From the NCBI RefSeq assembly GCF_012395255.1, contig NZ_JAAZQD010000002.1:453929-517928 (forward strand): a stretch of 64,000 bases of DNA, read 5' to 3'. A program made the position numbers and the translations under genes. Under the pieces are notes generated by a model. That model made no database searches. It was not told the origin of the DNA and was given only the letters and a program-made list of their open reading frames with translations. The DNA comes from Oleiagrimonas citrea (GTDB lineage: Bacteria > Pseudomonadota > Gammaproteobacteria > Xanthomonadales > Rhodanobacteraceae). Positions 26,061 through 49,102 of this stretch are shown here, piece by piece. Numbering within the stretch: the first letter of the stretch is position 1; each line of letters opens with the position of its first letter.

Positions 26061-26144
26061 CGCGCATCATGTGGACGATGCCACACTGCCCATCTGCGCG
26101 TATCTCCTTATACTCGGAGATATAAACGCCAACGGATACCTGCG

Positions 26145-26723
26145 ATGACCCTGCTGATCCTCGGACTGATCCTGTTCCTCGGCATGCACAGCGTGCGCAT
26201 CTTTGCCGACGGCTGGCGCACGCGCATGATCGAACGTCTCGGCCCGATGCCGTGGAAGGCCATCTACGCGTTGATCTCGCTGCTCGGTTTCGTGCTGATT
26301 GTCTGGGGCTTCGGCCAGGCGCGGCTGCATCCCACGCTGCTGTACGCACCGCCGGCGATGCTGCGCCACCTCAACAGCCTGTTCACGCTGATCGCCTTCA
26401 TCCTCTTCGCCGCCGCGTACGTGCCTTCGAACCACTTCAAGGCCCGGCTCGGCCACCCGATGCTGCTGGGCGCGAAGGTCTGGGCCTTCGGCCACCTGCT
26501 CGCCATCGGCTTCCTGCGCGACGTGGTGCTGTTCGGCGCATTCCTGGCGTGGGCCATCGTCGCCTACATGGCCGCAAAGCGACGGGACCGCAAAGCCGGC
26601 GTCACCTATCCGGCCGGCACCGCGAAGGGCGACGTCATCACCGTGATCGCCGGCGTGATCGGCTGGGCGGTGTTCGCGTTCTGGCTGCACATGGCGTTGT
26701 TCGGCGTGAATCCGATGGGGTGA
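26145..26723 (+). CDS. NnrU family membrane protein
   Basis: 5-TM protein collinear with NnrU-family proteins. A palindrome lies just upstream. Confidence 0.75.
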   Translation: MTLLILGLILFLGMHSVRIFADGWRTRMIERLGPMPWKAIYALISLLGFVLIVWGFGQARLHPTLLYAPPAMLRHLNSLFTLIAFILFAAAYVPSNHFKARLGHPMLLGAKVWAFGHLLAIGFLRDVVLFGAFLAWAIVAYMAAKRRDRKAGVTYPAGTAKGDVITVIAGVIGWAVFAFWLHMALFGVNPMG

Positions 26724-26736
26724 TGTGTTCGCACGC

Positions 26737-27448
26737 TTACCGGGCAGGCAGGAACAATCGAACCACCGACGCCACCTGCTCGGGCTTGTCGTACGGAACG
26801 CCATGCCCCGCATTCGGAATCTGCGCAACGCGAATGCATGCATGCATCCGCTGCAGCGCATCGGCCATCTCGCTCGTCACGATGCCGGACTCGGCGGTGA
26901 TCAGCAGCGTCGGAATGTCGATGGCGCGGATCAGCTGGCGGTAGTCGGGATTCGGCGGGCGAAGCACTTCGAACGCTTCGATGCGTGTCCGCAATCGCGC
27001 ATCCGCAAGGTGGTCGATGATTTCCTGCGAAATCGCTGTCGAACACTTCGACCTGACGCTGCGCGCTCAGAAAGGTCGGGTCCACCAGAACCACACCGCG
27101 CAGCAGGGCGGAGGCGCGACTCGCCACGAGCGCTGCCGTCATGCCGCCCATGGAGTGTCCCACCAGGACCGGCGATGCCAGCTCGAGCGCCTGGATGAAT
27201 CCCATGACATCGCGGGCATGATCCTCGTATCCGTACCCGTGATCCGGCGCGCTCGAACCGCCGTGACCGCGGGCATCGGGCATCACCACGTCGTACGCAC
27301 TCTCCAGCGCACGCGCCACGGGCGTCCAACACGCTCCGCTACCGATCAACCCATGCAGCAGTACCAACGGCGGCTTGTCTCCACCGGTTCGCAGGTATTG
27401 GATATCGATGCCGTTTGCCTCGCAGACATCACGCATCCAATGCGGCAT
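26737..27448 (-). pseudogene. alpha/beta hydrolase, frameshifted
   Basis: N-terminal 2/3 (HGL.GS..W, GHSMGG nucleophile elbow) is in one frame to ~27040. The C-terminal third (..NAGHGVPYDKPE..) continues in another frame (26994-26737). Confidence 0.6.
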
Positions 27449-27519
27449 GAAGAGTCACCTGGCTGGATCGGATGGACTGGCGCGAAGCACTCTTTTCCAT
27501 GCAGGCGAAACGCTACGCA

Positions 27520-28044
27520 TCAGCGCGTCTTGCCATGCGTCTTCGGCTGGATGGGTTCGTGTCCGTAACTGAGAATGCGCGTCGCGCCCCACTTGTCCGA
27601 CGTTTGATGCCACACGATCAGGAACTGTGCTTCGCCGAAACACTTGTCGCTCTTGATCTCGCAGAACTTGTGCCGGCCCTGCTCGATCGCACCGTAGTTC
27701 TTGATCGGGAAGACTTCGAGAGTGCCGGGAATCAGTACGCGACGATAATGACCGCATACGTTCTTCTCCGTGTTGGCCATGTAGGCCTGGCGCGTCTAGG
27801 TCACGCCTCCCTTGTCGTGATAGAACTCCAGGTTCGGCGCCAGATAGCTCGCGTGCTTCTTCAGCTGCGCGGGCGAGCTGCAGTGGTTGAAGGAATCGAA
27901 CAAGCCGGCATCGAGTTTCGACACCGTGGCGTACAGGGACTGCTTCGCAGCGGCGGCACGGGCCTGCTGCGGTAAAGCAGCCATGACCGCGCTCGACAAG
28001 GCAAGCGTCAGAACGAAACACGTCACCGGTGTGCGTCTGTTCAC
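27520..28044 (-). pseudogene. NTF2-like (DUF4440/SnoaL-like) secreted protein interrupted by in-frame TAG
   Basis: GTG start after AAGGAG. Signal peptide. A single fold is split by an amber codon at 27797-27799 (..FYHDKGGVT*TRQAYMANTEK..). Confidence 0.55.
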
Positions 28045-28235
28045 GTCATTCTCCTTGGCATGAACCACCATCTTAACGTCTGCGCAGAACGACATGACGC
28101 CCGAACAGCGAGGACTTCCAACATGGATGTCCATACGGTTATTCAATCGCTCGCTGACACACCATGAGCACAAGCATGTGAACCCGCACCACGACCTTTG
28201 TACGGACGTGCACGCCTGGGTCCACCCGCCAGAAA

Positions 28236-29435
28236 TCAGTCCACGCGACCACCCAGCTCGACGAGCTTCCGACGATAGTTCTCGACTTCGCCATAGCCGG
28301 TCTCGACGGCAAGACGATAGGCACGCCGGTATTCGGCGAGCGCTTCGGATTTGCGTCCGGCCTTCTCGTAGGCGCTGGCCAGCCAGGCGTTGTTCCGCGG
28401 ATAGCGGTTGTCGGCATAGGCCTTGGCATTGCGCCGAAGCACGGCAATCGCCGCTTCGTAGCGGCCCTGCTGCATCAGCTGCAGTCCCAACGGTACATAG
28501 ATTTCCTGCGCCTGCCGCGCTGCCGCGCCGTACTTGTCCTGGATCATGTGTTCATGGGCCAGAAAGGCGTCGGTCGAGAAATGGTCGATGATTCCCTGCG
28601 GCAACCGCAGGTCGGCGAAGATGAACTTCACGCCGCGGTAGAAGATTCTGAGCGGCGCGGACATGTGACCTTCGCCATCGAATTCCCGGTACCCCACACG
28701 CACATTCGACGGACGCGCCGCCTTCACCGCATCGACAAAGCGCTTCAGCTCCTGGCGCATGCCCTGGCCATCCTCGGCACCGATACCGAAATACAGCGAG
28801 GTCTTCAGCTTCGGATGCGTCTCGAGAAAGGGACCGACCTCCTTCGTCATTTCCTCGTGGTTCCACCACAGCGCCGGCGACATGACGATCTCGGCACCGA
28901 ACAGCTTCGGCGCCTTCATCCATGCATAGACGCAGAACAGTCCACCGAGAGAATGTCCGGCGAGCACCCGGTAACCATTCGTGCGGTAGTGCTTTTCGAC
29001 GAAAGGAATCACCTCGTCCCGGAGATGCGCCAGCAGCTTCGCGGCATCGCCGCTCTGCGGATTTCCCGCCATACGCGACGGCGTCATGTCCAGCGTGCGG
29101 TCGACACTCTTGAGACCGACCAGGATCACCGGCGGCATGTCCCCGGAACGCACCAGCACATCGCGGGTACCAGCCGCGTGGCGGATGTTCTGCATGCCGT
29201 CCAGTAGATAGATCACCGGGTAACGCGCCTTGGATGTGTCGTAGCCGTCGGGCACCGAAACCAGAATCGTGCGCTCGTCGCCCAGCGCCGCCGAGGCGAG
29301 GTGAAATTCCTTCGCCAGCGTCAGCCGGCCCGCTGCCTTTACCGGGACCACTGGAGCCGCTCGCGCTGTCGCCCACAGACCGGCAAGAACAAGTACGACG
29401 AGAAAATGGAACGAAACGAAGTAACGCTTTCCCAT
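28236..29435 (-). CDS. esterase (enterochelin/putative-esterase fold) with C-terminal TPR-like region
   Basis: Signal peptide. GHSLGG serine-hydrolase motif. GGGAG RBS. Confidence 0.75.
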   Translation of the reverse strand: MGKRYFVSFHFLVVLVLAGLWATARAAPVVPVKAAGRLTLAKEFHLASAALGDERTILVSVPDGYDTSKARYPVIYLLDGMQNIRHAAGTRDVLVRSGDMPPVILVGLKSVDRTLDMTPSRMAGNPQSGDAAKLLAHLRDEVIPFVEKHYRTNGYRVLAGHSLGGLFCVYAWMKAPKLFGAEIVMSPALWWNHEEMTKEVGPFLETHPKLKTSLYFGIGAEDGQGMRQELKRFVDAVKAARPSNVRVGYREFDGEGHMSAPLRIFYRGVKFIFADLRLPQGIIDHFSTDAFLAHEHMIQDKYGAAARQAQEIYVPLGLQLMQQGRYEAAIAVLRRNAKAYADNRYPRNNAWLASAYEKAGRKSEALAEYRRAYRLAVETGYGEVENYRRKLVELGGRVD

Positions 29436-29674
29436 GGAAACTCCCTGACCTGCTGCGGACAGGTCCGACATCCCGATGCAACCAGGCCGCGCACACTCGC
29501 TTGCAGCACGACTCCGTCCGCATTCGGGGAAACCCGTCAAAAAAACCGTTCGCCCGAAGGGCCAACGGTCGTATAGATGCCATCAAGCAGGAAAAGGTTT
29601 GCACCCGCCACACGCGACCGCATTGCGATACGCGTCGCCGTCCAGGTCATTCTCTTATTTCCCAAGAAAACTCC

Positions 29675-29810
29675 CCCGGGGAGGCGTCGACAGCACCTCC
29701 TGTGCTGACAACGAACTGGCGCACATCCCTGTGCCCCCTGGAGGCCTGATCCCCCGCCCCCCGACGCTACCGAATGGGATGGAGTTGCAGACCCGGACCT
29801 CACGGCACGA
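29675..29810 (+). repeat. partial copy (A) of the island-associated structured repeat
   Basis: ~80% identical to the 3' half of copies B/C, including the cagcacctcctgtgctg hairpin and the ggcgcacatccctgtgc hairpin. Confidence 0.5.
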
Positions 29811-30041
29811 ATTAATTGCCTCCGCTCCCTCTTCCTTTTGCCACTTTTTCCAATCGGACAAGACTCATTCGAGCTAAAGCAGGCCTGCTGAAACGGACGT
29901 TTCCGAATGCTTCCATCCGCCCATGTCGGGGCTCGAATGTCTCGACATGGGCTTCGCGTATCATGTCAATCCGACACGGCTTGTCGTGCACCTCGCACCA
30001 TCAAGCACATGGACCTCACTCATCAACCAGAAAGGAATCGT

Positions 30042-31316
30042 ATGAAGCACCCTCACTTTGCGGGCCTGCTCGCCGCGGGTTTGCTCATGACCTTATCTTC
30101 CGTGTCCGCATCGGCCACCGACATCTCCATCCAGCAGGATGTGAACGGACAAGCGCTACGCATCGTTGCATCGAAGGACCAGTACGCAGGCGCTATATAT
30201 TCAGTCACCTATCGAGGCACTGAATACATCGATCACTACGATCATGGTCGAGAGCTGCAATCGGCTTCGTCTTTCGATGGCCTGGGCGAATGCTTCAATC
30301 CCACGGAAGCGGGATCCAGCAAAGACGGCACCGGTTCCTCAAGTACGTCGATACTGATAAGCGCCTACGCTTCAGGCAACACACTTCAGACCACCAACAA
30401 CATGGCGTTCTGGATCTACCCAGGATCGAACTATGTCAATAGCTGTGGGCAAATGTGGTATGTAAGCCCTTTGTCTGGGCACATCTTCAGCAAAACCGTA
30501 ACGATCGGGTACCAGGGCATACCTAACCTCATACGCTACAGCGCCTCGTTCACTCCTGCTGAAAACCACAACAGCGCCACCTTCGAGGCGGCGACAGGCT
30601 ACATGCCCCCCAGCTTTTCCCAATTTCTCGCCTATAACCCCAAGACACGACATCTCAGTGTCTTGTCTGACGGCCCGGGCGAGCAAGCCACGCCCGTGAT
30701 CTTGGCCACCACGAATGGCCTTAACGCCATGGGAGTCATATCACCCGGGCTACCTCAAGCCTCATATCCGAACCTAGGCTATGGGCGATTCCGTTTCCCC
30801 AGTACCACGAAATGGAACTGCGTCTATCGAGCAACGAATATCCTCGCAGGCGATACCTACACCTACAACTGCTTCATTGCCATCGGCACCGTCGACGAGG
30901 TCATGGCTGCCGAAAACCGGCTGGTACAAAGTACAAGCCAACCCTCTCCGTTGTTCCGCTTCTATAACGGAAAAGATCATTTACTGACCGCGATCTATAC
31001 GGAAGGCGCCAGTGCGGGCTACCAATTCGAGGGCACGACAATGCATGTCTATCCGAATGCCATCGATAGCGGCATGGAACCCATATACCGTTGCCGCGAG
31101 GGCAACCACGATCACTTCCTGTCGACGCGTCAAGACTGCGAGGGACAACGCTACGAAGGTCAGTATGGATTCATTTCCAGCCATTCGCGCCCCGGCTACA
31201 GTGCCTTGTACCGACTTTACAACTCATCCGTGGGCGACCATATGTCGACCACCAATCCCGATGAAGGCACTAACCACGGCTATCGGGTGGAAGGCATCCT
31301 CGGCTACGTCAATTAG
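30042..31316 (+). CDS. secreted protein of unknown function with three C-terminal YR-YN..DH..TT..GY..EG repeats
   Basis: AAGGAA RBS and signal peptide. ~52% GC. Three ~35-aa repeats of the type LFRFYNGKDHLLTAIYTEGASAGYQFEG. Confidence 0.65.
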   Translation: MKHPHFAGLLAAGLLMTLSSVSASATDISIQQDVNGQALRIVASKDQYAGAIYSVTYRGTEYIDHYDHGRELQSASSFDGLGECFNPTEAGSSKDGTGSSSTSILISAYASGNTLQTTNNMAFWIYPGSNYVNSCGQMWYVSPLSGHIFSKTVTIGYQGIPNLIRYSASFTPAENHNSATFEAATGYMPPSFSQFLAYNPKTRHLSVLSDGPGEQATPVILATTNGLNAMGVISPGLPQASYPNLGYGRFRFPSTTKWNCVYRATNILAGDTYTYNCFIAIGTVDEVMAAENRLVQSTSQPSPLFRFYNGKDHLLTAIYTEGASAGYQFEGTTMHVYPNAIDSGMEPIYRCREGNHDHFLSTRQDCEGQRYEGQYGFISSHSRPGYSALYRLYNSSVGDHMSTTNPDEGTNHGYRVEGILGYVN

Positions 31317-31365
31317 CGTATCGGCGAGACCGGATACAACAAGGATCGCGGCACGTTCATGAGAT

Positions 31366-31396
31366 AAAAAAAGCCGCCCGGAAACCGGGCGGCTCA
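31366..31396. terminator. bidirectional intrinsic terminator
   Basis: Hairpin gccgcccgg-aaa-ccgggcggc flanked by an A-run on the plus strand, T7 on the minus strand. Sits between convergent genes. Confidence 0.6.
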
Positions 31397-31442
31397 AGGC
31401 GCGTCCTGCGCCGGAGACGGGTGTCGGCATCGACGCCGCATC

Positions 31443-32558
31443 TCAGCGATCCTTCAGGCTGACGACCTGGCCCAGCACGCCGTCCAGGCCACCGAACACG
31501 GTCAGCTTGTCGATCTTCTCGGTGACCTTCTCCAGGGTCTCCAGTTCCTTCAGACGCATCAGCGTCGGGTTGTCCGCGATCAGGCGCGCAGTGTTCAGCG
31601 CGGAACGCGTCGCGTTGGCCTCCTCGCGGCGGCGGATGGTATTGGCCTGCGCCGACTTCTCCGCCTGCACCACCTCGTTGAGGATGGTCTTCATCTCGCC
31701 CGGCAGGATGACGTCCTTGACGCCCACGCCGAGCACCTCGATGCCAAGGTCGGTCACACGACCGCGCACGTAACCGAAGATGTCGCCGTCCAGCGACGCC
31801 TTGTCGCCGAGCAGCTCGTCCAGCGTCTTCGACGCCACGGCCTTGCGCAGACCGAACTGCAGCTCGCGGTACAGGTAGTCGCCATACTTGGCCACGCGGG
31901 TACGCGCGGCGACCGGGTCGGTCACGCGCACGCTCGCGGCCAGGTTCACGCGCAGGCTCACCTTGTCGCGGGTCAACAGTTCCTGACCCGACACCTCGAT
32001 CGCCTGCACGCGCAGCTCGACCACTTCCACGGACACGTTCTTCTGGAAGTTCCAGAACGCGTACGCGCCCGGCGTCAGCGTGCGCCGCAGAGTGCCGTCG
32101 ACGAACAGCATGCCGGTCGACTCCTGCGGCACCTCGCTCACCACCGCGTGACGCGACAGCACGCCGATCTGACGCAGACGACGCATCACGGCCTTGGGCA
32201 CTTGCAGCTCGTCGCCGATGGCGATCCGCTCGATGCCTACGCGGACCGGACCCTTCCAGTACAGGAAGCGCGCACCCGGCTCCAGCACGCCGCGCAGACG
32301 GCCGTCGCAGGACACCAGACCGACCTCGTCGACACCGATGTCGGCCAGCAGGAAGTGCGTGTCCAGCTCGTCGCCAAGACGCTCGATCAGCACCTCGGCG
32401 TCCTTGCCGGTATAGACCGGCTGGGTGATGTCGTGAATACGCACCTCGCAGCGAGTGCTCACCCAAGTGACACCCGGCAGCAGGATGCGCTCCAGGCGAC
32501 GGTTGCGGTACAGCAAACCGCGCTCGCCGTCGCCGATGACGATGCGCTTGATGAACAT
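31443..32558 (-). CDS. slipin / SPFH (band-7, stomatin-like) family protein
   Basis: AAGGAGA RBS. SPFH domain. C-terminal coiled coil rich in E/K/R. Confidence 0.8.
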   Translation of the reverse strand: MFIKRIVIGDGERGLLYRNRRLERILLPGVTWVSTRCEVRIHDITQPVYTGKDAEVLIERLGDELDTHFLLADIGVDEVGLVSCDGRLRGVLEPGARFLYWKGPVRVGIERIAIGDELQVPKAVMRRLRQIGVLSRHAVVSEVPQESTGMLFVDGTLRRTLTPGAYAFWNFQKNVSVEVVELRVQAIEVSGQELLTRDKVSLRVNLAASVRVTDPVAARTRVAKYGDYLYRELQFGLRKAVASKTLDELLGDKASLDGDIFGYVRGRVTDLGIEVLGVGVKDVILPGEMKTILNEVVQAEKSAQANTIRRREEANATRSALNTARLIADNPTLMRLKELETLEKVTEKIDKLTVFGGLDGVLGQVVSLKDR

Positions 32559-32907
32559 GACGTTTCTCCTTGTCATCATGCAGTCCGTTTTTCATCGTCC
32601 CGCGCGCCGGACTGCTCCGCGCTCGTGACGCCTGCCTCCCCTGCGGAGACGAAGAAGGTGGGAACGCCCCCGACACCGCCGCGGCGGAGGTCGGGCGGTC
32701 GTCCGCGATCCGCGTCGCGCGTCGTCCGCGCATCGACGTCGCTTCCCTGCGCGCGTCGACATGCGGCTCCGGCGCAACGTTCGTCGCGTCCGACGGCTCC
32801 GCCCCGGCCGAGGCCAGTGCTGGACGCGTCCACCGGCAGCCGCCGAAGCAACCGCGCGACAGGCGCGCCCAAGGAGCGTTCCCGTGTGTGGGACTTGCGT
32901 CCCGGGT

Positions 32908-32980
32908 GCCAAAGAGCGGGACTCGAACCCGCAACCTACGGTTTATGAGACCGTTGCTCTACCCATTGAGCTATCGATAC
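32908..32980 (-). tRNA. tRNA-like element, anticodon loop CUCAUAA (CAU, Met/Ile2-type); acceptor stem does not pair, probable pseudo-tRNA
   Basis: Canonical D arm (TAGCTCAATGGGTAGAGC), anticodon stem-loop ACGGT-CTCATAA-ACCGT and T arm (GCGGG-TTCGAGT-CCCGC). The 5' acceptor strand (GTATCGA) cannot pair with the 3' strand (TCTTTGG). Confidence 0.4.
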
Positions 32981-33051
32981 AAAGGGCAGGAGTCGAACCT
33001 GCGACATCAGCAATCTGAATGCTGCGCTCTCCCAGACTGAGCTACCTTCAG
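32978..33051 (-). tRNA. tRNA-like element, anticodon CAG in a 7-nt loop, class-I length; acceptor stem weak (4 WC + 2 GU + 1 mismatch)
   Basis: Canonical D arm (TAGCTCAGTCTGGGAGAGC), anticodon stem-loop CAGCA-TTCAGAT-TGCTG and T arm (GCAGG-TTCGACT-CCTGC). Its 3' end overlaps the 5' end of the neighbouring element by 3 nt. Confidence 0.4.
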
Positions 33052-33662
33052 CGTGTGACCGGCGCCACCGACCCTCGGCATACGCCACGGCAGCGCCGCG
33101 CGCACCGGCCGGGATGTACAACCCGGACCGCTGCGAACCGATGCCAACCGGTCACAGATGACTGTCTCTTGCCGAAACAGCCATTCGTTTGACGCGCATC
33201 CACGCGCCGAATTCTTTGCGAGAAAAATCCCTTGTCGCGCGAACGCCGGTAGAAACGAAAACGCCCCGGGGGCAGAGCCTTCCCGGGGCGTTCGCGGATA
33301 CCGGGGAGATCGTGAATCGACCTCCTCGCGATGTGCGATCAGGTCAATGAATGCATCGGGCCACGTGCAAGCACGAACGGCACACGCCCGTCATCGCGCA
33401 GACGCATGACGGGCGTCTGTTCGATGCGAATCGCGTTGTGGTGCCAGCTGCACATGATGAATATCCTGATGAATCGCGCGCCGCAGATCAGCGCGAGGGC
33501 GGGCATCCTATTCGCGGTTGTTTTGAATTGCAAGCAACGCGTATCGAAAATATTTACCCGCAGAAGGGAAGCAAACCCGGAATCCGGCTTGTTCCACGGA
33601 CCCAGCAATCCGCGCGAATGCAGGTACAGTCATCGATTCCATCGAACGAGTCCTCGGCCGCC

Positions 33663-34852
33663 ATGAAGCCCCTTCCGCACATCGTCCTGGCCACGTTCGG
33701 TACGCACGGCGACCTGCATCCGTTCATGGCGCTGGCGCTCGCGCTGCAGCGACACGGCGCGCGCGTAACGCTGGCGGCGGCGAGCGAATATCGGGAGAAG
33801 GTCGAAGCCGAAGGCCTGACGTTCGCGCGGATGCGACCGGACATGCAGGCGGTCATCGACCGCCTCGGCTTGGACGAACACGAACTGACCTTGCGTATCG
33901 CCCGCCAACCGCAGTTCCTGCTGACCCACATCGTCATGCCAGCGCTGCGCGACGCCTACGAGGACATCATGGCGATCAGCGCCGATGCCGACGCGCTGGT
34001 CACGCACTCGGTGGCCTACGGCGCCAAGCTCGCCGCCGAGAAGCGTGGGCTGCCGGACTTCAGCATCGCGCTGCAGCCGATGGTGTTCTGGTCGGCCTAC
34101 GATCCGCCGATCATCGCCAACGCCGAGAGGCTGTCGCGCTGGGTGTATCGCCGTGGCCCGACGCTGACGCGCGCTTTCATCGACCTCGGCAAGCGCGTGA
34201 GCCGACGCTGGGCGCGGCCCATCGACGCCCTGCGACACGTGCTCGATCTGCCGCCCGCCGACGCGCACCCACTGTTCGAAGGCGCGTTCTCGGATGATGG
34301 CGTGCTGGCGCTGTACTCCTCGCTTTTCGGTGCGCCGCAGCCGGATCATACAGCGCATACGGACATCGTCGGCTTCGCTTTTCATGACGGCGAGCGCGGC
34401 GTTCCCGCGACGCTGGATGCGGACACACAGCGGTTCCTCGACGCCGGTCCACCGCCGCTAGTGTTCACCCAGGGCACCTCCGCCGTGCATGACGCGGAAA
34501 TCTTCGTGCGCGAAAGTCTGGCCGCGGTACGCACGCTGGGCACACGCACGGTGTTCGTGCTGGATGACGAACGCGTCGCGCGCTGGGCGGCGGGCGACCG
34601 CAACTGGTGGTACCGCATCTGGTCGACCAGCCCGACAACGCGGCGCGCGTGGAACGCCTGGGCGTCGGCCGTGCATGGCCGCGACACAGGTACCGCGCCG
34701 ATCAGGCCGCCGTCACGCTCGGCGCCATGCTCGAGGATGACGCCCTGAACCACCGCGCCGCCGAAGTGGGCGCCATCGTGGCGCGGAAGGACGGCGCCGA
34801 GACTGGAGCGCAACGCATCCTTCAACGACTGGATGAGCACCCTCGCCGCTGA
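33663..34852 (+). pseudogene. MGT/UDP-glycosyltransferase family (GT1) gene with internal deletion/frameshift
   Basis: N-terminal GT-B domain is intact to ~34585. The segment carrying the HHGG.GT motif is missing. The C-terminal ..QLVVPHLVDQPDNAARVERLGVG.. continues in another frame (34607-34852). Confidence 0.6.
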
Positions 34853-34878
34853 AGCCGGTTACCCCCTCCGGAAGCGAC

Positions 34879-35199
34879 TCAGCTGGCGGCAGTCTTCGCC
34901 ACCGCAAGCGCACTTGCCGCCGGCCCAAGCAGCGGTAGCCATTCGCGGATCTCATGCGTGGCGACCACACCCTCGATCATGAACGGATCCCGCTCGGCGA
35001 TGGTCTGCACGGCGGCTAGATCGTCGGCGTGCATGATCAGCAGACCGCCGCGGACCTCCCCGGACCCCCAGGGTCCCGACGCCACGAGCGTGCCTGCGTC
35101 GACGAGACGGCGCAGGTGCGCGAGATGGGCCGGGCGTACGGCGTCCTGCCGTGCCACGTCGTCGGTGTATCGATAAAGAAGGATGAAGGTTGCGGGCAT
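34879..35199 (-). CDS. YciI-like (YCII-related) protein
   Basis: 106 aa from MPATFILLYRY. Dimeric alpha+beta barrel family pattern. Confidence 0.7.
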   Translation of the reverse strand: MPATFILLYRYTDDVARQDAVRPAHLAHLRRLVDAGTLVASGPWGSGEVRGGLLIMHADDLAAVQTIAERDPFMIEGVVATHEIREWLPLLGPAASALAVAKTAAS

Positions 35200-35429
35200 G
35201 ACGCATGCTCCTGGAGCTTGGATGATCGAATCGGAAGGACGTGCTTCGGCCGGTGCGCTGCGCAATCGACTTCAACGCGTCTTCCGCACGGCCGCTGGGC
35301 ACGGACTTGGCGCGGCGACCTGCGTCGGTCGGATTCGGCGGCACGCGCGACCGCCGTCCGCAACGGAAAACGGACGGCCCGGGGTCGGTGCATCACGCAG
35401 CACCGCGCACCCGGGCCGTCGGTCAGGAC

Positions 35430-36194
35430 CTACAGGAACATCCCGCCGGAGGCCTCGATGCGCTGCCCGTTGATCCAGCGGCCGCCGGGGCCGAGCAGTG
35501 CGGCGACGGCATCGCCGATGTCGTCGACGTGTCCGGCGCGACCCAGCGCGGTATTGGCCGCGACGAAGGCGTTGAGCTCGGGATTGTCGCGCACCGCACC
35601 GCCGCCGAAGTCGGTCTCGATGGCGCCCGGCGCCAGCACGTTGACAGTGATGCCGCGTTCGCCCAGCTCGCGGGCCTGGTAGCGGGTCAGCACCTCGATC
35701 GCGCCCTTCATGGCCGCGTAGGCAGCAAAACCGGGCAGGGAAAAACGTGCCAGGCCGCTGGAGACGTTGAGAATGCTGCCGCCGTCGGCGAGGGTGGGCA
35801 GCAGTTTTTGGGTCAGAAAGAACGGGCCCTTCAGGTGCACGTTCATGAGCGCGTCGAACTGCGCCTCCTCGGTGTCGGCAAACAATGCATGGGCGCCGAT
35901 GCCGGCATTGTTGACCAGGAAGTCGAGGCGCTCGCGTTGCCAGTGCGTACGCAGCGCCTCGGCGACCGTCTCGACAAAGGTGTCGAAACCGGCGCTGTCG
36001 CCAACGTCCAGCGGCAGCGCCACGGCGCGACGGCCGATGGCTTCGATGGCGGCGACTACGGCCGCGGCCTCGTCGTGGCGGCTGCGGTAGGTCAGGATCA
36101 CGTCGGTGCCCTGTGCAGCCAGCTTCAGGGCCATGTCGCGTCCGAGGCCGCGGCTGCCGCCGGTGATGAGGGCGATGGGTGTGGAGGTATGCAT
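35430..36194 (-). CDS. SDR family NAD(P)-dependent oxidoreductase
   Basis: TGGSRGLG cofactor motif. NNAG. Catalytic YAAMK. Confidence 0.85.
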   Translation of the reverse strand: MHTSTPIALITGGSRGLGRDMALKLAAQGTDVILTYRSRHDEAAAVVAAIEAIGRRAVALPLDVGDSAGFDTFVETVAEALRTHWQRERLDFLVNNAGIGAHALFADTEEAQFDALMNVHLKGPFFLTQKLLPTLADGGSILNVSSGLARFSLPGFAAYAAMKGAIEVLTRYQARELGERGITVNVLAPGAIETDFGGGAVRDNPELNAFVAANTALGRAGHVDDIGDAVAALLGPGGRWINGQRIEASGGMFL

Positions 36195-36278
36195 GGCGAT
36201 CTCCTGTCGGGGAATTGGACAGGCGTCAATCTATTGATCTTTAAAGAGACAATAAATCCATAAAATATGATTTGAATG

Positions 36279-36293
36279 TTCATATATTTTGAA
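36279..36293. promoter_or_regulatory. LysR-type T-N11-A box candidate
   Basis: ttcatatattttgaa dyad in the AT-rich divergent SDR/LysR intergenic region. Confidence 0.3.
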
Positions 36294-36306
36294 CAATTAT
36301 GCCGCC

Positions 36307-37221
36307 ATGAACCGACTCGACATCATGCAGGTCTTCGTGCGGGTGGCTGAACTGTCCAGTTTCACGCGCGCAGCCGACAGTCTGGGCCTGCCAAAAGCCA
36401 GCGCCTCGACCGCCGTGCGCAAGCTGGAAACGCTGCTGAACACGCAGCTGCTGCACCGGACTACGCGCCGCGTGCGCCTGACCGCCGACGGCGAGGCCTT
36501 CTACGAGCGCTGCAAGGAAGTCCTCGATGACGTCGACGATTTGCAGTCGATGTTCCAGCAGGGGTCGCAAGCGTTGCGTGGGCGTCTGCGCGTAGACATG
36601 TCCAGCGGCTTGGCGCGCAACTTCGTGTTGCCGCACCTGCCCGAATTTCTCGATGCCCACCCACAGCTGGAGATCGAACTCAGCGGCACCGACCGCTATG
36701 TCGACGTGATCCGCGAGGGCTTCGACTGCGTGCTTCGTGTAGGCCCGGTCGCGGACAGCGCGCTGGTGGCGCGCCAACTCGGGGTCTTGCCAGTCATCAC
36801 CTGCGCCAGTCCGGCCTATCTGGAACGTCACGGCATGCCGCACACGCTGGACGACCTGGATGCACACAAACTTGTGCACTACGTATCCACGCTCGGGGCG
36901 CGTTCGCCCGGATTCGAATACGCCGAGGGCGGCAGCTATCGCAGCCTGCCGATGGCCGGCGCGTTGACGGTGAACAGTTCCGAGGCCTATGTCGCCGCCT
37001 GCCTGGCCGGCATCGGCCTGGTCCAGGTTCCGCGCCCCGGCGTGGCCGCGCTGCTGGAAAGCGGCAGCCTGGTGGAAGTGCTACCGCAGCTGCACGCCGA
37101 ACCCATGCCGGTCACGCTGCTGTATGCGCAACGGCGCAACCTTCCGAACCGGGTGCGCGCATTCATGGACTGGGTCGCTGCGCTGCTGGCGCCGTCGCTG
37201 GACCGACCGGCACGACCGTGA
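36307..37221 (+). CDS. LysR family transcriptional regulator
   Basis: N-terminal wHTH (..FTRAADSLGLPKASASTAVRKLE..). C-terminal LysR substrate-binding domain. Divergent from the SDR gene. Confidence 0.85.
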   Translation: MNRLDIMQVFVRVAELSSFTRAADSLGLPKASASTAVRKLETLLNTQLLHRTTRRVRLTADGEAFYERCKEVLDDVDDLQSMFQQGSQALRGRLRVDMSSGLARNFVLPHLPEFLDAHPQLEIELSGTDRYVDVIREGFDCVLRVGPVADSALVARQLGVLPVITCASPAYLERHGMPHTLDDLDAHKLVHYVSTLGARSPGFEYAEGGSYRSLPMAGALTVNSSEAYVAACLAGIGLVQVPRPGVAALLESGSLVEVLPQLHAEPMPVTLLYAQRRNLPNRVRAFMDWVAALLAPSLDRPARP

Positions 37222-37376
37222 CCGCGCCGCACCCCTTGCCCGAACTAGATCGCGCCATGGCATCCGGATCGGTGCCTGCGTGCGCGCATGGCGCGTCGAC
37301 ATGACGCATATGATCGCATTCCTTGCTGCCGCCCATGGGTACATCCCTGTACCCCGTCCGATCCCTGGTACCGCGA

Positions 37377-38450
37377 TTACTGCAGGAACACCGGCTGGAA
37401 CGAGAACACGTTCTTGCTGTCCGGGTCGACCGTCATCTCCACCCAGCTGTTGTCGGCGTTGCCGAACACTTCCACACGGGTGAAGTTCGGCTGGGTCTGG
37501 CCGTTGTCCTTCACCATCGCCTTGTCGACGCGGAAGTAGTGCGAATCGCCATGCACCAGTACCACCTGGCCGTCGAAGTTTTGGGTCTCGTCGATCATGG
37601 CGTGGAAGAAATCGGCGAAGCCGTTGTAGCTCGGGTCCAGCGTTGGCAGGAAGGTATCCTTGTAGTTGCCGTCGGCGACATCGATGCCGCCATACATATC
37701 CGCCTGAATAGCGATCACGACACCGGCCAGGTGCCGCTTCCTGGCCACGGCGAAGGCGTCCGCCAGCCACTGCAAGTTCGCGGCATTGCGCGCGCGGTAT
37801 TCGGCGGTGGCGGCGGCGCAATCGGCCGCGGTACGCATGGACTTCTTCGTGCACTCCTTGTCCGTAGCCACGAAGTTGTTGTTGCTGCCGATCACGTTGA
37901 GTGAAACAAACATCACGCGATCACGGATGAAGCGGCTGTTCTCGCTGTAGGCCTTCCCCGGTGCGCCCTGGCGATCGACCCGCATCGGATGCAGCCCCTG
38001 GCTGACGTTCTTGCTGAAGAACGTCTTGCGCAGGTAGGCGAGCCGTTCCAGCGGGTCGTAGCCGCCGTTGCTGGTGCGATGGCAGTCGGTCCATTCGTTG
38101 TCGCCCAGGCTGTAGATCGTCGGCGCATACACGCGGTCGAAGCGGTTGACCACATCCTGGCCAATGGCCTGATTGGTGCAGAGGCTGTGGCCGTTCTTGG
38201 TATCGCCGACGAAGATGGTGAAGTCCAGATCGTGGTCGTTCAGCGAGTCGATGGTCTGGTTTTCCTGCGCAGCCTGCACGGCCGGATCGTCGGCGTAGAA
38301 CTGATCGCCCCACAGCGCGACATGGATCTTGCCGTGATCGTGGTCATGGCCGTGTCCATGGCCGTGACCGTGGGCATGCGCGAACAGGGGCAGGGCCAGT
38401 GCGGCCGCCAGCATCACGACATTCAGCTTGCTTCGAGAAAGCATGGTCAT
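37377..38450 (-). CDS. secreted calcineurin-like metallophosphoesterase
   Basis: Signal peptide, (HG)n/(HD)n His-rich tract, phosphoesterase motifs GDTKNG and LGDNEW. Confidence 0.8.
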   Translation of the reverse strand: MTMLSRSKLNVVMLAAALALPLFAHAHGHGHGHGHDHDHGKIHVALWGDQFYADDPAVQAAQENQTIDSLNDHDLDFTIFVGDTKNGHSLCTNQAIGQDVVNRFDRVYAPTIYSLGDNEWTDCHRTSNGGYDPLERLAYLRKTFFSKNVSQGLHPMRVDRQGAPGKAYSENSRFIRDRVMFVSLNVIGSNNNFVATDKECTKKSMRTAADCAAATAEYRARNAANLQWLADAFAVARKRHLAGVVIAIQADMYGGIDVADGNYKDTFLPTLDPSYNGFADFFHAMIDETQNFDGQVVLVHGDSHYFRVDKAMVKDNGQTQPNFTRVEVFGNADNSWVEMTVDPDSKNVFSFQPVFLQ

Positions 38451-38574
38451 TCCCTTCCGTATGGGGTGGTTGAGTGATGAAGCGCGAGGTGCACTCGGAA
38501 CCTATCGACGCTGCGTGACAGGTCGATGAACTTGGCTCGCGGCTGCGGCCGGGCGTGAGGGAATTCACACACTC

Positions 38575-38945
38575 CGGCAGCGGGCGGCTCGTAGGGCGGA
38601 CACTGTCCGCCGCATTCCGCTGCGCTCCGTTTTCGAAGAGCGGTTCCGTCCGGCTGGCGCCGGTCGGGTCACTTCTATTGCTTGTCCAATAGAAGTAACC
38701 AAGACAAGGACACCCCAGCGTTCGCGCCCTACGCGCCTGCGGCGCTACGGGTCCGCTCCGGGCTCCGGGGGTTCGCCGACAGTACATCCTGTGCTGGCGA
38801 CGAACTGGCGCACGTCCCTGTGCGCCACCCTGCGGGCCTGATCCTCCACCCTCCGCCGCTACCGAAGGGGATAGGGTTGCACGCCGGAAGCTACGGCAGC
38901 ATTCACTTCAAACGGTTGTAAGTGAACCTGGAACCGTTATCACCT
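38575..38945 (+). repeat. island-associated structured repeat, copy B
   Basis: ~95% identical to copy C over ~370 bp. Contains perfect hairpins gtcacttctattgcttgtccaatagaagtaac and cagtacatcctgtgctg. Ends ..ggaaccgttatcacctgg. Confidence 0.7.
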
Positions 38946-39016
38946 GGGCGGCTTTCGCACAACGACGCTAAACGCAGTGTGTTTACATCACCCGATGCAC
39001 AGCATGCAGGTGGCCG

Positions 39017-40408
39017 CTATTCCACGGCAAAGGGACCAAATTCCTTGTAGTAACCGGTCTCTGGAATGTTTGCGCTCAGGGTGAGTTTTTTCTCTGCATC
39101 GACCTTGATCTTGATACGCACCATCAGTTTCCCAGCCGGACGCGGGGGAAGATTAGTCAGCACGGCATCAAAAAACTTTTTCGCTTCGCCCTCTCCCTTT
39201 TGTGCCAGCTGAATTTCCAATTCCTTCTGATTGGTCTCGGCGTTGGCAAAGGTGTCGGCGAACGTGACGGGAAGGCGGTGTGTCGCCGGAATCAGCGGAA
39301 AGAACTTGCCGCCCTGCGTCACGATACCGATCGTTTTCTTCAGGACCGGCGCGCGTGCCGCGGGCGCGGGTCTTGAAGAAGCTGCATCGCTTCGTGGTGG
39401 CCTGGACGCGGCGCGGACGTTTTCTTTCGGCTTCGTCCTGACTTTTGGACGGTCCAGGTGAACCGGCCCGATATCCTTTTCGGCGAGGGTGTTGACGTTG
39501 TAATTGGTGTACTTGTCCTTGGCCGTATCCACCAGGTATAGGCTGCCGGTGAGGATATTGTTTTTGTCCACCTTCAGCTTGACGCGCACTTCCAGCTCTC
39601 TTCCCGGTCGAAGACCAGGCCGACCATCAAACGTGGTCTCGTACAAGGTCCTCGATCCACCCTTGCCCCTTTCCGTGATTTGGACTTCGAGGGGCTTTTG
39701 GTCGTATTCGACACCCAATTTCCTTTCCCATTCCAGGGGAAGCCGCCGATCTGCCAAAATGGAACCCCGTCTCGTGCCGCCATACCCGGCCTGATGCACG
39801 GTAATGTCGATCGGCGACTTCAATACGGGACCAAATAATGCATTGGCCTCCAAGCAACTGCGGACGGGTATGGTCGGCCGATTCGGATCCGTCGCACAGC
39901 CCTGGTAGTAGTAATGGATGGCGTGTACGCATTTTTCCCGCTGTGCCATGAAACGTTGCCCTTGCGCGGAACAAGAGAACGTGGCATCCGCGTACTGCCC
40001 AGCCTCACCCACGAGCTGTCCCAGGGCCCCGCTCTTGGCCGGCTGTCCCGGCAACTTCGTGTTGAACCCCGGACAGGTGATCGCGACCCGCTCGGTGGTG
40101 GCATTGTTGGGCTTGCAGGCGCCGCCGGCCGGGGATTCGCGCCACACGTAGCGACAGACGTTATTGAAAATCGGCGGCGTGTTTCGCCGCGTGCAGGCGC
40201 CGAAGGCCTGGCAACCCTGCTTGGTGCCGACGCCCTGCGGACATTTCTCCCGGATATGACGGCACACCCCGACATCCATGCACAGACCCCCCAGGACCTT
40301 GCACTGCTTGACGGCGACCTCATATCGCCTCTGGCATGACATGTTGCCAGCCTGCGCGGTGACCGAGAGCAAGATCCCGGCCAGCAAGAATAGTTTCCTG
40401 AGCATCAT
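39017..40408 (-). CDS. secreted Cys-rich protein with two tandem Hsp70 (DnaK) substrate-binding-domain-beta-like repeats
   Basis: GGAGA RBS. Signal peptide MMLRKLFLLAGILLSVTAQA. ~20 Cys in the N-terminal ~200 aa. The C-terminal repeats align to the DnaK SBD-beta sandwich. ~58% GC. Confidence 0.65.
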   Translation of the reverse strand: MMLRKLFLLAGILLSVTAQAGNMSCQRRYEVAVKQCKVLGGLCMDVGVCRHIREKCPQGVGTKQGCQAFGACTRRNTPPIFNNVCRYVWRESPAGGACKPNNATTERVAITCPGFNTKLPGQPAKSGALGQLVGEAGQYADATFSCSAQGQRFMAQREKCVHAIHYYYQGCATDPNRPTIPVRSCLEANALFGPVLKSPIDITVHQAGYGGTRRGSILADRRLPLEWERKLGVEYDQKPLEVQITERGKGGSRTLYETTFDGRPGLRPGRELEVRVKLKVDKNNILTGSLYLVDTAKDKYTNYNVNTLAEKDIGPVHLDRPKVRTKPKENVRAASRPPRSDAASSRPAPAARAPVLKKTIGIVTQGGKFFPLIPATHRLPVTFADTFANAETNQKELEIQLAQKGEGEAKKFFDAVLTNLPPRPAGKLMVRIKIKVDAEKKLTLSANIPETGYYKEFGPFAVE

Positions 40409-40944
40409 GGTCTCCAGGCACATCATCGATCGAATGCTGCCGCCCCCGTGTCCTGTCGACGACCTCGCGCCCGCCCCACCGCAAAGGGGGCAAGAACGCT
40501 GCATTGGAAGCCACGCCGTCATGGCAAGGCCAGCGAAGAAGGGATCGTCGCCATGCTCCCCCGAGATGGCATACGCGAAGGTTCGTACGAACCCGTCCCC
40601 CTCCCCGAAGCGGTTGCCGGCGCATCGCGTGACCTGAAGACTGTGCGAGACACGCAACCCGGCCTGAAGCGAACCGTTCGGGCTTGAAGACCATCTTCCG
40701 GAAATCATTTTCCATATGCAAGACAGTCACTTGCATACTCAGCCTGAGGAGACGACCGCAGCATGGCCGATACATCCAACGCCGCTCCGTACCCATCCAG
40801 CGGCCCAAGAACAGTGCCGGGTACAGTCCCATACTCCATTCAATCGGGCGTAAGAGAACCTGGCCCCGTTCTTTGACGATGCCGCCTCATGATGCCTGCT
40901 GGACAGAGTGAGAGAATCGAAAGCATTTAATGCCCCCGACTCCT

Positions 40945-41345
40945 GTTGAAGGACGGCTCGTAAGGCGGGCACTGCGCGCTGTTTTCCGTTGCGTTTCATC
41001 TCTTAAGAGCGGTTCCGACCGGCTGGCGCCGGCCGGGTCACTTCTATTGCTTGTCCAATAGAAGTCACCAAGACAAGGACACCCCAGCGTCCGCGCCCTA
41101 CGCGCCTGCGGCGCTCCGGGTCCGCTCCGGGTTCCGGGGGTTCGTTGACAGCACCTCCTGTGCTGACGACGAACTGGCGCACATCCCTGTGCGCCACCCT
41201 ACGGGCCTGATCCTCCACCCTCCGCCGCTGCCGAAGGGGATAGGGTTGCACGCCGGAAGCCACTGCAGCATTCACTTCAAACGGTTGTAAGTGAACCTGG
41301 AACCGTTATCAACCGGAACCGTTATCAACCGAACCGTTATCCAGG
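40945..41345 (+). repeat. island-associated structured repeat, copy C (ends in 3x tandem ggaaccgttatca)
   Basis: Collinear with copy B. Hairpins are conserved with substitutions. The 3' end carries three tandem 13-bp units where B has one. Confidence 0.7.
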
Positions 41346-41455
41346 ACCATTGGGACTGCCCGCTCGGGAGATCCAGTTGCGTTAGGATTTGGCGAAGGGA
41401 ACGGGGTTAAAAGGTAATGCCGGCTCCCGTCCATGGTCGGACTAAGGGAATAACC

Positions 41456-42334
41456 ATGCCTGATACCGCAAGAATCCACATCCACGCCTTTCGAGTTTCG
41501 AAAACCGCCAACAGTGCTCACCTCGAAAATTTAATCGATAGGATCGGTCGCCACCGCCTAGAGGACCGAGTTAGGACAATCGTAACCTCCAGCGTCCGCA
41601 TTGAAAGGGTAACCACGAGGCACAACGATGCGCCTCGGGAGACCTACAAGCTAATGGACTTCGTGAGGTTTCGTGATACGCATGGTCCGGGGAAAGCGTC
41701 TCGCGATCACGCAGTTAGTGACTTCGATTTGGGTCCGGACGAATATTTCGGTGAGGAAACAGCGGCGCTCTACGTACCTGAATCGAGATGGCTGCTTGTC
41801 CAGTACAACCATTTTGGCGTTCGTCCGAATGCCATGGCGTCATATTTCAGTTACTTCGACCAACAGCAAACCAACTCTTATGAATTAAGCATCAAACTCG
41901 ACCCTGATGCTGAGCGGCGCTTCATGGAAACGAATGACGTCCGTCGCGTTGAGCTCGACCTAGATCTAACCCAGATGCGCGCGGCAGACAGGGATCGGGG
42001 GTTGGGACTTGGCACTGTTGCGCAATACGGCGCTAACCTCAACGGAGCCAAGCTGAAGCTTACCCTTTCCGTGGGCATGGACAGGAAACGTCGACTGGGC
42101 GGACAAGTTAAGGATGCCGTAACTGACATGATCCAGAACTCAGAAATGGTCACTGGGGCTCAAATCGCAGGGCGTGAGACCCCGGAAGGGCAAGTTGAGG
42201 TCATTGACCTGTTGGAAGAAAAGCTAACTGCGGAGGCCAGCATCACCATTGGCCCGGGTCGACGCTTAGACCAAGAGGAAAGATTCCGTGCCCTGATCTG
42301 GGCGCGTAACCACTGGAGAGACATCCTCAGATGA
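41456..42334 (+). CDS. hypothetical protein (292 aa), cassette gene 1 of the two-gene module
   Basis: AAGGGA RBS. ~52% GC. Soluble, no TM helices. No family I can name. Has an R-x4-H stretch (RFRDTH) and an acidic DFDLGPDE patch. Stop overlaps gene 2 (ATGA). Confidence 0.6.
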   Translation: MPDTARIHIHAFRVSKTANSAHLENLIDRIGRHRLEDRVRTIVTSSVRIERVTTRHNDAPRETYKLMDFVRFRDTHGPGKASRDHAVSDFDLGPDEYFGEETAALYVPESRWLLVQYNHFGVRPNAMASYFSYFDQQQTNSYELSIKLDPDAERRFMETNDVRRVELDLDLTQMRAADRDRGLGLGTVAQYGANLNGAKLKLTLSVGMDRKRRLGGQVKDAVTDMIQNSEMVTGAQIAGRETPEGQVEVIDLLEEKLTAEASITIGPGRRLDQEERFRALIWARNHWRDILR

Positions 42335-42756
42335 CCGAATTGCAGCGCGAACGCTTGTTCCCTTGGCTGTGGGGCGTATGCTCCGCAGCGGCGCTGCTCG
42401 TGGGTCACTATGTCTGGGGGCTCCAGATGCCTACCGGCGATTCGTACAAGTCTGCGCTCTTGACCTTGGGTGGAATATTCGCGGGCTTTATGGCGACCTT
42501 GACCGCGTTGTTGTATTCGATGCGAGACGAGACATTCGAACGACTGCGAGATTCCAAGTACCTCAAAGATCTTCTGGATTACCTCCATGAGGCTCTATGG
42601 TCCAGCTTGCTGCTGTGCTTTGTTACGTGGGTATCGTTCTGGGTGCCCGATTCGTGCTGGTTCCTTCAAGTGGTCTTGGGGGGCCTCGCAGTCTTTACCA
42701 TGGCTGCCATATTCAGGATTGCGAAGATCGCTAGTTCGTTGCTGGCTGACAGATAG
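42331..42756 (+). CDS. small 4-TM membrane protein (141 aa), cassette gene 2
   Basis: Four hydrophobic helices (LFPWLWGVCSAAALLVGHYVWGL, ALLTLGGIFAGFMATLTALLY, LLLCFVTWVSFWV, FLQVVLGGLAVFTMAAIF). Translationally coupled to gene 1. Followed by an aaaggccgcccc-gag-gggtggccttt hairpin. Confidence 0.6.
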   Translation: MTELQRERLFPWLWGVCSAAALLVGHYVWGLQMPTGDSYKSALLTLGGIFAGFMATLTALLYSMRDETFERLRDSKYLKDLLDYLHEALWSSLLLCFVTWVSFWVPDSCWFLQVVLGGLAVFTMAAIFRIAKIASSLLADR

Positions 42757-42849
42757 CTTTCTGACACAAAGTTGATCCGGACTTTCCGTACAGATGTCCG
42801 TACAACGACAAAGGCCGCCCCGAGGGGTGGCCTTTGTCATAGCGTTCAT

Positions 42850-42899
42850 TGGTGGGCGGTACAAGGATCGAACTTGTGACACCTGCCGTGTGAAGGAAG
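42850..42899 (-). other. tRNA 3'-end fragment with encoded CCA (att-site-like integration scar)
   Basis: Reverse complement reads ..CTTCACACGGCAGGTGTC-ACAAG-TTCGATC-CTTGT-ACCGCCC-A-CCA. That is a perfect T arm, 7-nt acceptor 3' strand, discriminator and CCA. No matching 5' half or D arm upstream. Confidence 0.6.
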
Positions 42900-42914
42900 G
42901 GCGCGCCAAAGATG

Positions 42915-43200
42915 ACGGGGTAGTTAGCTCGTGCCGTAACGTGCCGGTTTACGCCTCCCCTTCGATAGCGGCGGAGGGTGGAGGATCAGGCCCGCAGGGT
43001 GGCGCACAGGGATGTGCGCCAGTTCGTCGTCAGGTCAGGATGACCTGTCGACGAACCCCCGGAACCCGGAGCGGACCTGGAGGCCCGAAGGGCCGGAAGG
43101 CGCGGACGTTGGGGCGCCCTTCTTTGGTTCCTTTCTTGGGCGAACAAGAAAGGAACCCAGCCGGCGCCAGCCGGTCGGAACCGCTCTTCATCGAAGTCAT
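42915..43200 (-). repeat. island-associated structured repeat, copy D (inverted orientation, more diverged)
   Basis: Reverse complement is collinear with B/C. Hairpin 1 is replaced by a different perfect hairpin ggttcctttcttgttcgcccaagaaaggaacc, hairpin 2 by caggtcatcctgacctg. Confidence 0.65.
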
Positions 43201-43226
43201 GAACCGTCGAGAACGGTGCAGGAAGT

Positions 43227-49102
<5,876 letters not shown>

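Follow-up and report, generated by a model that had tools for sequence, protein, structure and literature searches.

The window (the whole 64-kb stretch of Oleiagrimonas citrea DNA analysed here) carries an orphan 3' half of a tRNA-Val(CAC) gene near gltD. We consider it likely that this orphan is an att identity block ('O') still joined to the island-side P' arm, a relic of islands whose tyrosine integrases target the tRNA-Val(CAC) anticodon loop in Rhodanobacteraceae, and that it now sits in a 1.65-kb cassette. The orphan cannot make a tRNA today and is a non-functional relic. It is a long-established principle that an island splits and restores the tRNA gene into which it integrates, and that a fragment stays behind (Islander, PMC4383910). 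As an att relic the orphan is routine, a new instance of a known att-scar feature in an atypical, ectopic context; the repeat-delimited cassette array in which it lies is the less expected feature. The features are listed in Table 1.

Table 1. Features of the window, and tandem arrays of tRNA-Val halves at comparison loci (L numbers)
Feature	Coordinates	Strand	Basis
Diverged partial fourth copy of the structured repeat, with type-2 tail	29630..29835	+	BLAST, sequence, CM 94.7 bits
Structured repeat copy A	38628..38942	+	Sequence comparison
Structured repeat copy B, other boundary of cassette 1	40998..41311 (core to 41249, type-1 tail to ~41311)	+	Inverted vs D
DUF6731 protein, cassette cargo, candidate defence gene	41456..42334	+	Pfam DUF6731, 1.9e-29
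141-aa predicted membrane protein, cassette gene 2	42331..42756	+	ORF
Double direct repeat TACGGAcatctgTACGGA, putative arm-type integrase site (P' arm)	42785..42802	-	Distribution; starts 47 nt after CCA
G+C-rich terminator-like hairpin AAAGGCCaCCCC-tcg-GGGcGGCCTTT	42810..42835	.	Sequence; readable on both strands
Orphan tRNA-Val(CAC) 3' half, att identity block 'O'	42850..42899	-	Sequence, 47/47 identity, truncated Rfam match
Repeat D type-2 tail (~42911-42956) plus ~10-15 nt abutting the tRNA piece	42900..42956	-	Tail alignment
Core of structured repeat copy D; follows the gltD stop codon directly	42957..43196	-	Sister-strain identity
gltD (glutamate synthase small subunit), conserved anchor gene	43227..44651	-	ORF, annotation
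Tandem tRNA-Val half arrays	L014 6782-7068; L020 2347-2506; L037 7163-7310; L071 6297-6445		
Tandem tRNA-Val half arrays	L074 2243-2526; L081 5579-5740; L096 1446-1731		

On the minus strand, from 42899 to 42850, the window reads CTTCC-TTCACAC-GGCAG-GTGTC-ACAAG-TTCGATC-CTTGT-ACCGCCC-A-CCA. This block, which includes TTCACACGGCAGG...CCA, corresponds to tRNA positions ~27-76 with an encoded CCA; the 5' half is absent. Its parts are, in order, the 5' strand of the anticodon stem (one mismatch), the CAC anticodon loop, the 3' stem strand, the variable loop, a perfect T arm, the acceptor 3' strand, the discriminator A73 and the CCA. No tRNA was called at this site by ARAGORN or by Rfam at the gathering score. 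The Rfam tRNA model applied to the isolated 50 nt gave a 5'-truncated match to positions 26-71 (17.2 bits), not a complete cloverleaf. When the orphan was aligned with the intact tRNA-Val(CAC) of O. citrea, the last 47 nt were identical (47/47), which bears out the Val/CAC parent proposed in the earlier note. The 28 nt 5' of the identity block lack the D arm and the acceptor 5' strand; because they match the intact tRNA at just 7 positions (7/28), the orphan is a true half, as the earlier note had read it, and not a mis-folded whole tRNA. The orphan 34-mer occurs once in the 64-kb window, against an expectation of 0, and ARAGORN found no tRNA-Val elsewhere in the window.

The single ARAGORN tRNA call in the window lies at 32978-33051. 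Two abutting tRNA-like sequences are found here (32914-33051, minus strand), with scores of 57.6 and 52.2 bits under the Rfam tRNA model. One of them is the ARAGORN call, a class-I-shaped 'tRNA-Leu(CAG)' of 74 nt, and the other carries CAT in its anticodon loop. The acceptor stems of both are poor, and the pair is located just upstream of a Band-7/SPFH gene (31443-32579) on the same strand.

The O. citrea genome used for comparison was assembly GCA_054781055.1, in which the window locus is on contig BAAGVD010000004.1; ~84 kb of O. citrea sequence was inspected in all. The intact tRNA-Val(CAC) gene (GGGCGGTTAGCTCAGCGGTAGAGCACTGCCTTCACACGGCAGGTGTCACAAGTTCGATCCTTGTACCGCCCACCA) was found on another contig, BAAGVD010000010.1 (L132, 9873-9947), which was retrieved via the gene flanking tRNA-Val in O. 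soli. It sits between LAB_N/metH genes and a 449-aa gene, and the order is the same in O. soli. The genome thus holds an intact parent with an identical 3' end, and the orphan is exactly identical to the 3' part of a tRNA of the same genome; the lack of such a parent, which the earlier note had named as a refutation, was not borne out. The earlier note had supposed that the intact tRNA was lost or lay outside the window. It does lie outside, but it was not lost: the native locus is syntenic with that of O. soli, island-free and unoccupied. An exact scan for the 34-mer, with one genome per species, returned >118 loci, almost all in Rhodanobacteraceae (Dyella, Luteibacter, Rhodanobacter, Frateuria and Oleiagrimonas). 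At 108 Rhodanobacteraceae sites an intact tRNA-Val(CAC) with an invariant 5' half ends in the 34-mer. The 34-mer was not found in a scan of viral contigs.

tRNA-Val(CAC) is an integration hot spot across Rhodanobacteraceae. There are 24 other tRNA-Val orphans in the family, and their similarity begins at TTCACAC or a few nt before. The present orphan starts in the anticodon stem-loop (..CC/TTCACAC), a boundary common to all 24, and its assignment to the tyrosine-integrase type in the earlier note stands. Williams is said to have distinguished sublocation classes of tRNA integration sites in 2002. In three pairs, an island far end has its intact tRNA near end on the same contig: R. aciditrophus (L104/L053, 26 kb apart), D. 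psychrodurans (L064/L108, 73 kb apart) and Rhodanobacter sp. DHB23 (L090/L051). The orphans L053, L095, L108 and L116 directly adjoin a gene homologous to the L053/L108 integrases. The L053 and L108 integrases match Pfam Phage_integrase, and each adjoins an attR orphan. A tblastn search of GenBank phages with the L053 integrase found nothing. We took ARAGORN calls of 'tRNA-Glu' and 'tRNA-Leu' in O. soli L121, and of 'tRNA-Gly' and 'tRNA-His' within ORFs elsewhere, to be false positives or of no relevance.

As a further arrangement of the orphans, tRNA-Val 3' halves form short tandem arrays directly after the intact tRNA, and the period of these arrays is 114-128 nt (Table 1). The unit in most of them consists of O, the terminator hairpin and a conserved segment ..GCGTGCGTGTAGCA(A/G)CG..; L037 and L071 are related variants. 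These arrays look like remnants of repeated integration and excision, or like a distinct tiny element.

We compared the sequence beyond the orphan CCA with the flanks of other tRNA-Val sites. Hairpins homologous to the terminator-like hairpin follow tRNA-Val in many Rhodanobacteraceae and are also present in island P' arms; in the window, the hairpin probably still terminates the convergent DUF6731/membrane-protein operon and any gltD read-through. The double GTACGGA repeat (TACGGA-N6-TACGGA) occurs once in 64 kb, against 0.02 expected. The form TACGGR-N3-9-TACGGR is present in both arms of tRNA-Val islands: in the attL sites L104, L064 and L063 it follows the CCA of the intact tRNA at a distance of 46-48 nt, and beside integrase genes it precedes the attR orphans L053, L095 and L108 by 117-148 nt. 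The TACGGR pair was absent at ~125 other tRNA-Val sites, and the GTACGGA pair was absent at the native tRNA-Val loci of O. citrea and O. soli. The orphan therefore shares both motif and offset with integrase-bearing islands, and the distribution of the pair suggests that it is an arm-type integrase binding site, a role that is putative. The P' arm of the window aligns with the arms of L104, L074 and L063. The 75 nt after the orphan CCA match island P' arms at 53-57/75 positions and the native O. citrea downstream region at 54/75; because this flank identity does not discriminate, the P' assignment is made from the double repeat only. Given that the repeat is found elsewhere only in island-side arms, we take the orphan to be the island-borne O-P' half of an att site. 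Furthermore, the flank with the arm repeat points into the cassette. Therefore, the fragment appears to be an attL-type copy that derives from attP and was carried by the island, and not, as had been proposed, a displaced end of the chromosome at the island edge.

The near-equal similarity of the 75-nt flank to the native region (54/75) and to P' arms is what would be seen if no integrase had been involved and the native tRNA-Val 3' half and its terminator had been copied into the array by illegitimate recombination or repair. We consider such a duplication unlikely. The 5' limit of identity is no more than 2 nt away from the boundary that 24 independent orphans of integrase type show. In addition, the native loci of O. 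citrea and O. soli lack the GTACGGA pair, which is present at the same offset in real attL sites; the adjoining cargo is foreign, with a GC content of 54%.

Sister strains were compared at the gltD locus, with the window reverse-complemented as comparison locus L001. In Oleiagrimonas sp. MCCC 1A03011, gltD is 99% identical, and the identity is 98% up to window position 42957 and again from 41249. Between these two positions, O. citrea has the tRNA piece, the terminator and the genes for the 141-aa membrane protein and DUF6731; MCCC 1A03011 has a different segment with a DUF4236 gene, and the tRNA piece is absent. Since the sister strain swaps the whole segment, the fragment is part of a strain-variable cassette. 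The gltD-repeat layout recurs in O. soli (gltD 95%) with other cassettes, and the tRNA piece is again absent. Across two sister genomes, the flanks are shared at 90-98% identity around a different cassette.

These comparisons bear on the proposal in the earlier note that an island integrated into a tRNA-Val gene beside gltD, the intact copy and the integrase being lost later. In its form the orphan would suit an island end, and the NnrU-gltD region (26.7-43.2 kb) is a plasticity zone when compared with relatives. Nevertheless, no relative examined, whether sister strain, O. soli or more distant genome, has a tRNA or a fragment after gltD; the earlier note had proposed a check for an empty gltD-tRNA site, and the layouts are gltD-repeat D, gltD/TANGO2 or gltD/REP arrays, all without a tRNA. 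The tRNA-Val of O. citrea is intact at a locus syntenic with O. soli. The fragment lies within the strain-variable cassette and outside the conserved flank, the junction of gltD with repeat D, which contains no tRNA 5' half, is the same in the sister strain, and the arm-type repeats are on the cassette side. An in-situ origin is highly unlikely in our judgement, and on this sequence comparison the orphan is not a scar at a tRNA gene beside gltD. Nor does the whole 38.5-43.2 kb block, which had been suggested as the element that entered, belong with the fragment: only cassette 1 accompanies it in the strain comparison. Thus, the observation in the earlier note was confirmed and its interpretation was partly supported. 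The ~330 bp given there as the distance to gltD agrees with the gltD stop at 43227, and the absence of an integrase from the window also holds. Searches by tblastn with three integrases gave chance matches only in the 64-kb window, and no recombinase or transposase was found by Pfam on the ORFs outside 33-55 kb or in the annotation of 33-55 kb. Neither a cognate tyrosine integrase nor an intact tRNA at the other element end is present in these 64 kb.

The NnrU-gltD interval (26019-43226) is ~16.5 kb here and ~3 kb in the relative L129. Given that it contains several low-GC segments, we regard it as a regional plasticity zone and not as a single island. One of its low-GC cassettes, between repeats A and B, encodes a secreted 463-aa protein (39017-40408, minus strand; signal peptide MMLRKLFLLAGILLSVTAQA), the C-terminal part of which gives a weak Pfam match (22.5 bits) to the substrate-binding region of Hsp70. 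A secreted 357-aa protein (37377-38450, minus strand) lacks a Pfam match and has a HGHGHGHGHDHDHG tract after the signal peptide; in O. soli, its homologue lies between two repeat copies. REP-like palindromes (GTAGGGCGGACACTGTCCGCC) adjoin the repeat heads at 38590-38612 and 40960-40985, and form tandem arrays right after gltD in L129 (11400-12050).

Strain comparison places cassette 1 at ~41.25-42.96 kb, with ~1.65 kb (41.25-42.90 kb) beyond the tail of repeat D. Its GC content is 54%, as compared with 69.5% for gltBD. The DUF6731 protein has a weak PADLOC match to the candidate system PDC-M67A. The pair of DUF6731 and membrane-protein genes is conserved in L125, L126 and L127; it adjoins restriction-type genes in L125, and the island that carries it in L127 begins with a tRNA-Met fragment followed by a P4-like integrase. 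These data fit mobile defence cargo, and the two genes are likely a defence pair. Exact-protein look-ups of the DUF6731 protein and the 141-aa membrane protein returned the O. citrea genome only, and a scan of viral contigs found no DUF6731. Searches of 118 tRNA-Val loci with the cassette proteins (tblastn) and the repeat (BLASTN) found nothing, and nothing was found in the literature on DUF6731. Between the type-1 tail of repeat B and the start of the DUF6731 gene there is a triple direct repeat GGAACCGTTATCA(A/C)C (~41283-41335, plus strand), of which copy A carries a single unit; it may be an operator or an iteron.

The repeats that bound the cassettes share a core of ~240 nt (GGCCTGATCCTCCACCCTCCGCCGCT) and extend over 240-300 nt per copy; cassettes follow either of two tails. 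Three independent cassettes lie between inverted copies: the DUF6731 cassette here, the DUF4236 cassette in MCCC 1A03011 and a 130-aa membrane ORF in L131. Repeat D is 98.9% identical to its sister-strain ortholog, and the identity breaks exactly at 42957/42956. In the tails from six copies, conservation stops at ...CCGTC(CCC)T, ~15-19 nt before TTCACAC; in copy D of the window, the end of the type-2 tail is ~15 nt from the tRNA piece. The 37 nt between the gltD stop and repeat D are unrelated to tRNA. In a set of the window copies, two sister genomes and one metagenome contig, compensatory double changes were seen in 16/79 predicted base pairs and were concentrated in three hairpins, and the 3' block is invariant (...GAACTGGCGCAC.TCCCTGTGCGCCACCCTGCGGGCCTGATCCTCCACCCTCCGCCGCTACCGAAGGGG). 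Copy B differs between near-identical strains mainly by a fully compensated swap of hairpin H1, which points to recombination or conversion among repeat copies. The simplest role consistent with these data would be to supply portable homology arms for cassette exchange, although the repeat may instead act in a site-specific way.

A covariance model run on the window and on 275 kb of other loci from Rhodanobacteraceae yielded no additional copy. All 4 copies in the window are within 29.6-43.2 kb, the fourth being upstream of a gene for a secreted DUF5648 protein (Pfam), and, in a comparison with MITE/REP-type elements, none was found in the 20 kb of L132. In the sequence available, the repeat occurs outside Oleiagrimonas on one JGI metagenome contig only. 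No terminal inverted repeats or target duplications are evident in the copies; the repeat has no Rfam family, and its core was not found in viral contigs. Type-2 tails contain the perfect palindrome CAATTAATTG followed by CCTCCGTCCC (29805-29828, plus strand; L131 380-450; L121 11740-11770). In L131, ATTAATTGCCTCCGTCCC is present as three tandem copies, and one tail stands alone with no core. The likeness of CCTGCCTTTCAC in O. soli to the tRNA anticodon arm was considered as evidence for a conserved pseudo-attB and set aside: it lies in the variable cassette of that strain, not in the conserved repeat tail.

Repeat D and the fragment are contiguous on the same strand, and we considered whether they form a single RNA. 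Together they would give a transcript of ~350 nt that is strongly structured (z = -5.5) and has a tmRNA-like end, with an encoded CCA before a terminator. The acceptor end of tmRNA has a G3:U70 alanine identity pair and a matching 5' acceptor strand, and the molecule has a tag reading frame. Here the 5' acceptor strand is absent, and the acceptor ACCGCCC has C70, so that a G3:U70 pair is impossible. No tmRNA, whether one- or two-piece, was found by ARAGORN, and Rfam gave no match to tmRNA even at E<=10, nor to another family. The orthologous repeat D lacks the module in two sister genomes, and the MFE fold shows the T hairpin only. A functional tRNA-like 3' module therefore has a very slim chance of being correct. 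A tRNA split in its anticodon loop by a group I intron-like RNA would likewise place a structured element, repeat D, immediately 5' of a half that starts at the anticodon loop. Such a gene needs a 5' exon, but none exists upstream of repeat D, in the stretch between it and gltD; Rfam gave no intron match, and the repeat recurs three more times without tRNA flanks. We give this reading practically no credence.

The array was also compared with known arrays of small cassettes. Integron arrays have IntI and attI beside them, attC sites of ~57-141 nt with a single imperfect hairpin, and cassettes in one orientation. The gltD array is similar in its small, strain-variable, often single-gene cassettes of unknown-function or defence type, and in repeats whose hairpins are kept by compensatory change. 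In contrast to attC, the Oleiagrimonas repeats are ~240 nt long, contain at least three hairpins and an extended invariant 3' block, and occur in both orientations. No IntI or other recombinase is in the window, and R''/R' boxes were not identified. An integron array was thus rejected, given the absence of IntI and the wrong size and orientation of the repeats. ERIC/IRU, BOX and BIME-type mosaics are structured intergenic repeats. Like them, the Oleiagrimonas repeat is extragenic, at most a few hundred nt long and multi-hairpin, is found right after stop codons and in either orientation, and lies beside REP-like palindromes; unlike them, it is confined in the available sequence to one Oleiagrimonas plasticity zone (4 copies in 64 kb). 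We also considered that the 240-nt repeats could be recombination sites of an undescribed Oleiagrimonas cassette-exchange system, and that the tRNA-Val att half could mark the capture of an island end by this system, or by an integrase at a look-alike tail site. The variable hairpins with conserved structure, the invariant 3' block ending ...CCGCTACCGAAGGGG and the cassettes between inverted copies are what would speak for an exchange site. Even so, we hold both the system and this capture to be distinctly unlikely.

Under the preferred reading of the orphan as a relic of a tRNA-Val island, we propose the following sequence of events. An island of the tRNA-Val family would have entered the array at a secondary site that is not a tRNA gene, and this would have created an attL-type junction, X-O-P'. 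A deletion would then have removed the bulk of the island, together with its integrase and the second junction. Alternatively or additionally, the remnant cassette may have passed between Oleiagrimonas strains by homologous recombination in the conserved repeat cores. The left half-site CCCTTCC keeps 5/7 positions of CACTGCC, and the core CTtCC-TTCACAC-GGCAG is so nearly intact that tRNA-Val islands could still land there. The stretch of 10-15 nt immediately upstream of O is unlike the P arms of integrase-bearing islands and matches the tRNA at 7/10 positions at most. Because the partner junction, the integrase and a second O copy are absent, we infer secondary-site insertion only from the position of the identity boundary and the P' arm. 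SGI1 integrates at a secondary chromosomal site (PMC2297512), and the att junction of the orphan is likewise away from the primary target, with the left half-site at 5/7. In contrast to SGI1, a single junction is left here, and neither an integrase nor an excised form was observed; because only this one junction survives, the event cannot be reconstructed.

The orphan agrees with the ends of tyrosine-integrase islands in its exact identity to a tRNA 3' end, its start in the anticodon stem-loop and its adjoining direct-repeat arm, and its tRNA is also used by integrase-bearing islands in related genomes. It differs from them in not being located at a tRNA gene and in lacking both an intact tRNA in cis and, within 64 kb, an integrase. 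The orphan is an O-P' half joined to unrelated array sequence, and it is polymorphic between near-identical strains within a 1.65-kb cassette.

These results have several implications. The tRNA-Val(CAC) hot spot of the family now has a recognisable arm motif. The place where an orphan tRNA half is found is not necessarily an island boundary, since such a half may travel as a passenger in small cassettes; such passenger halves can mislead island-mapping methods that pair tRNA genes with fragments. If the undescribed exchange system were real, it would be a route by which island cargo is turned into array cassettes. Finally, the orphan draws attention to a hypervariable, repeat-delimited array after gltD that carries candidate defence genes and repeats without an Rfam match.
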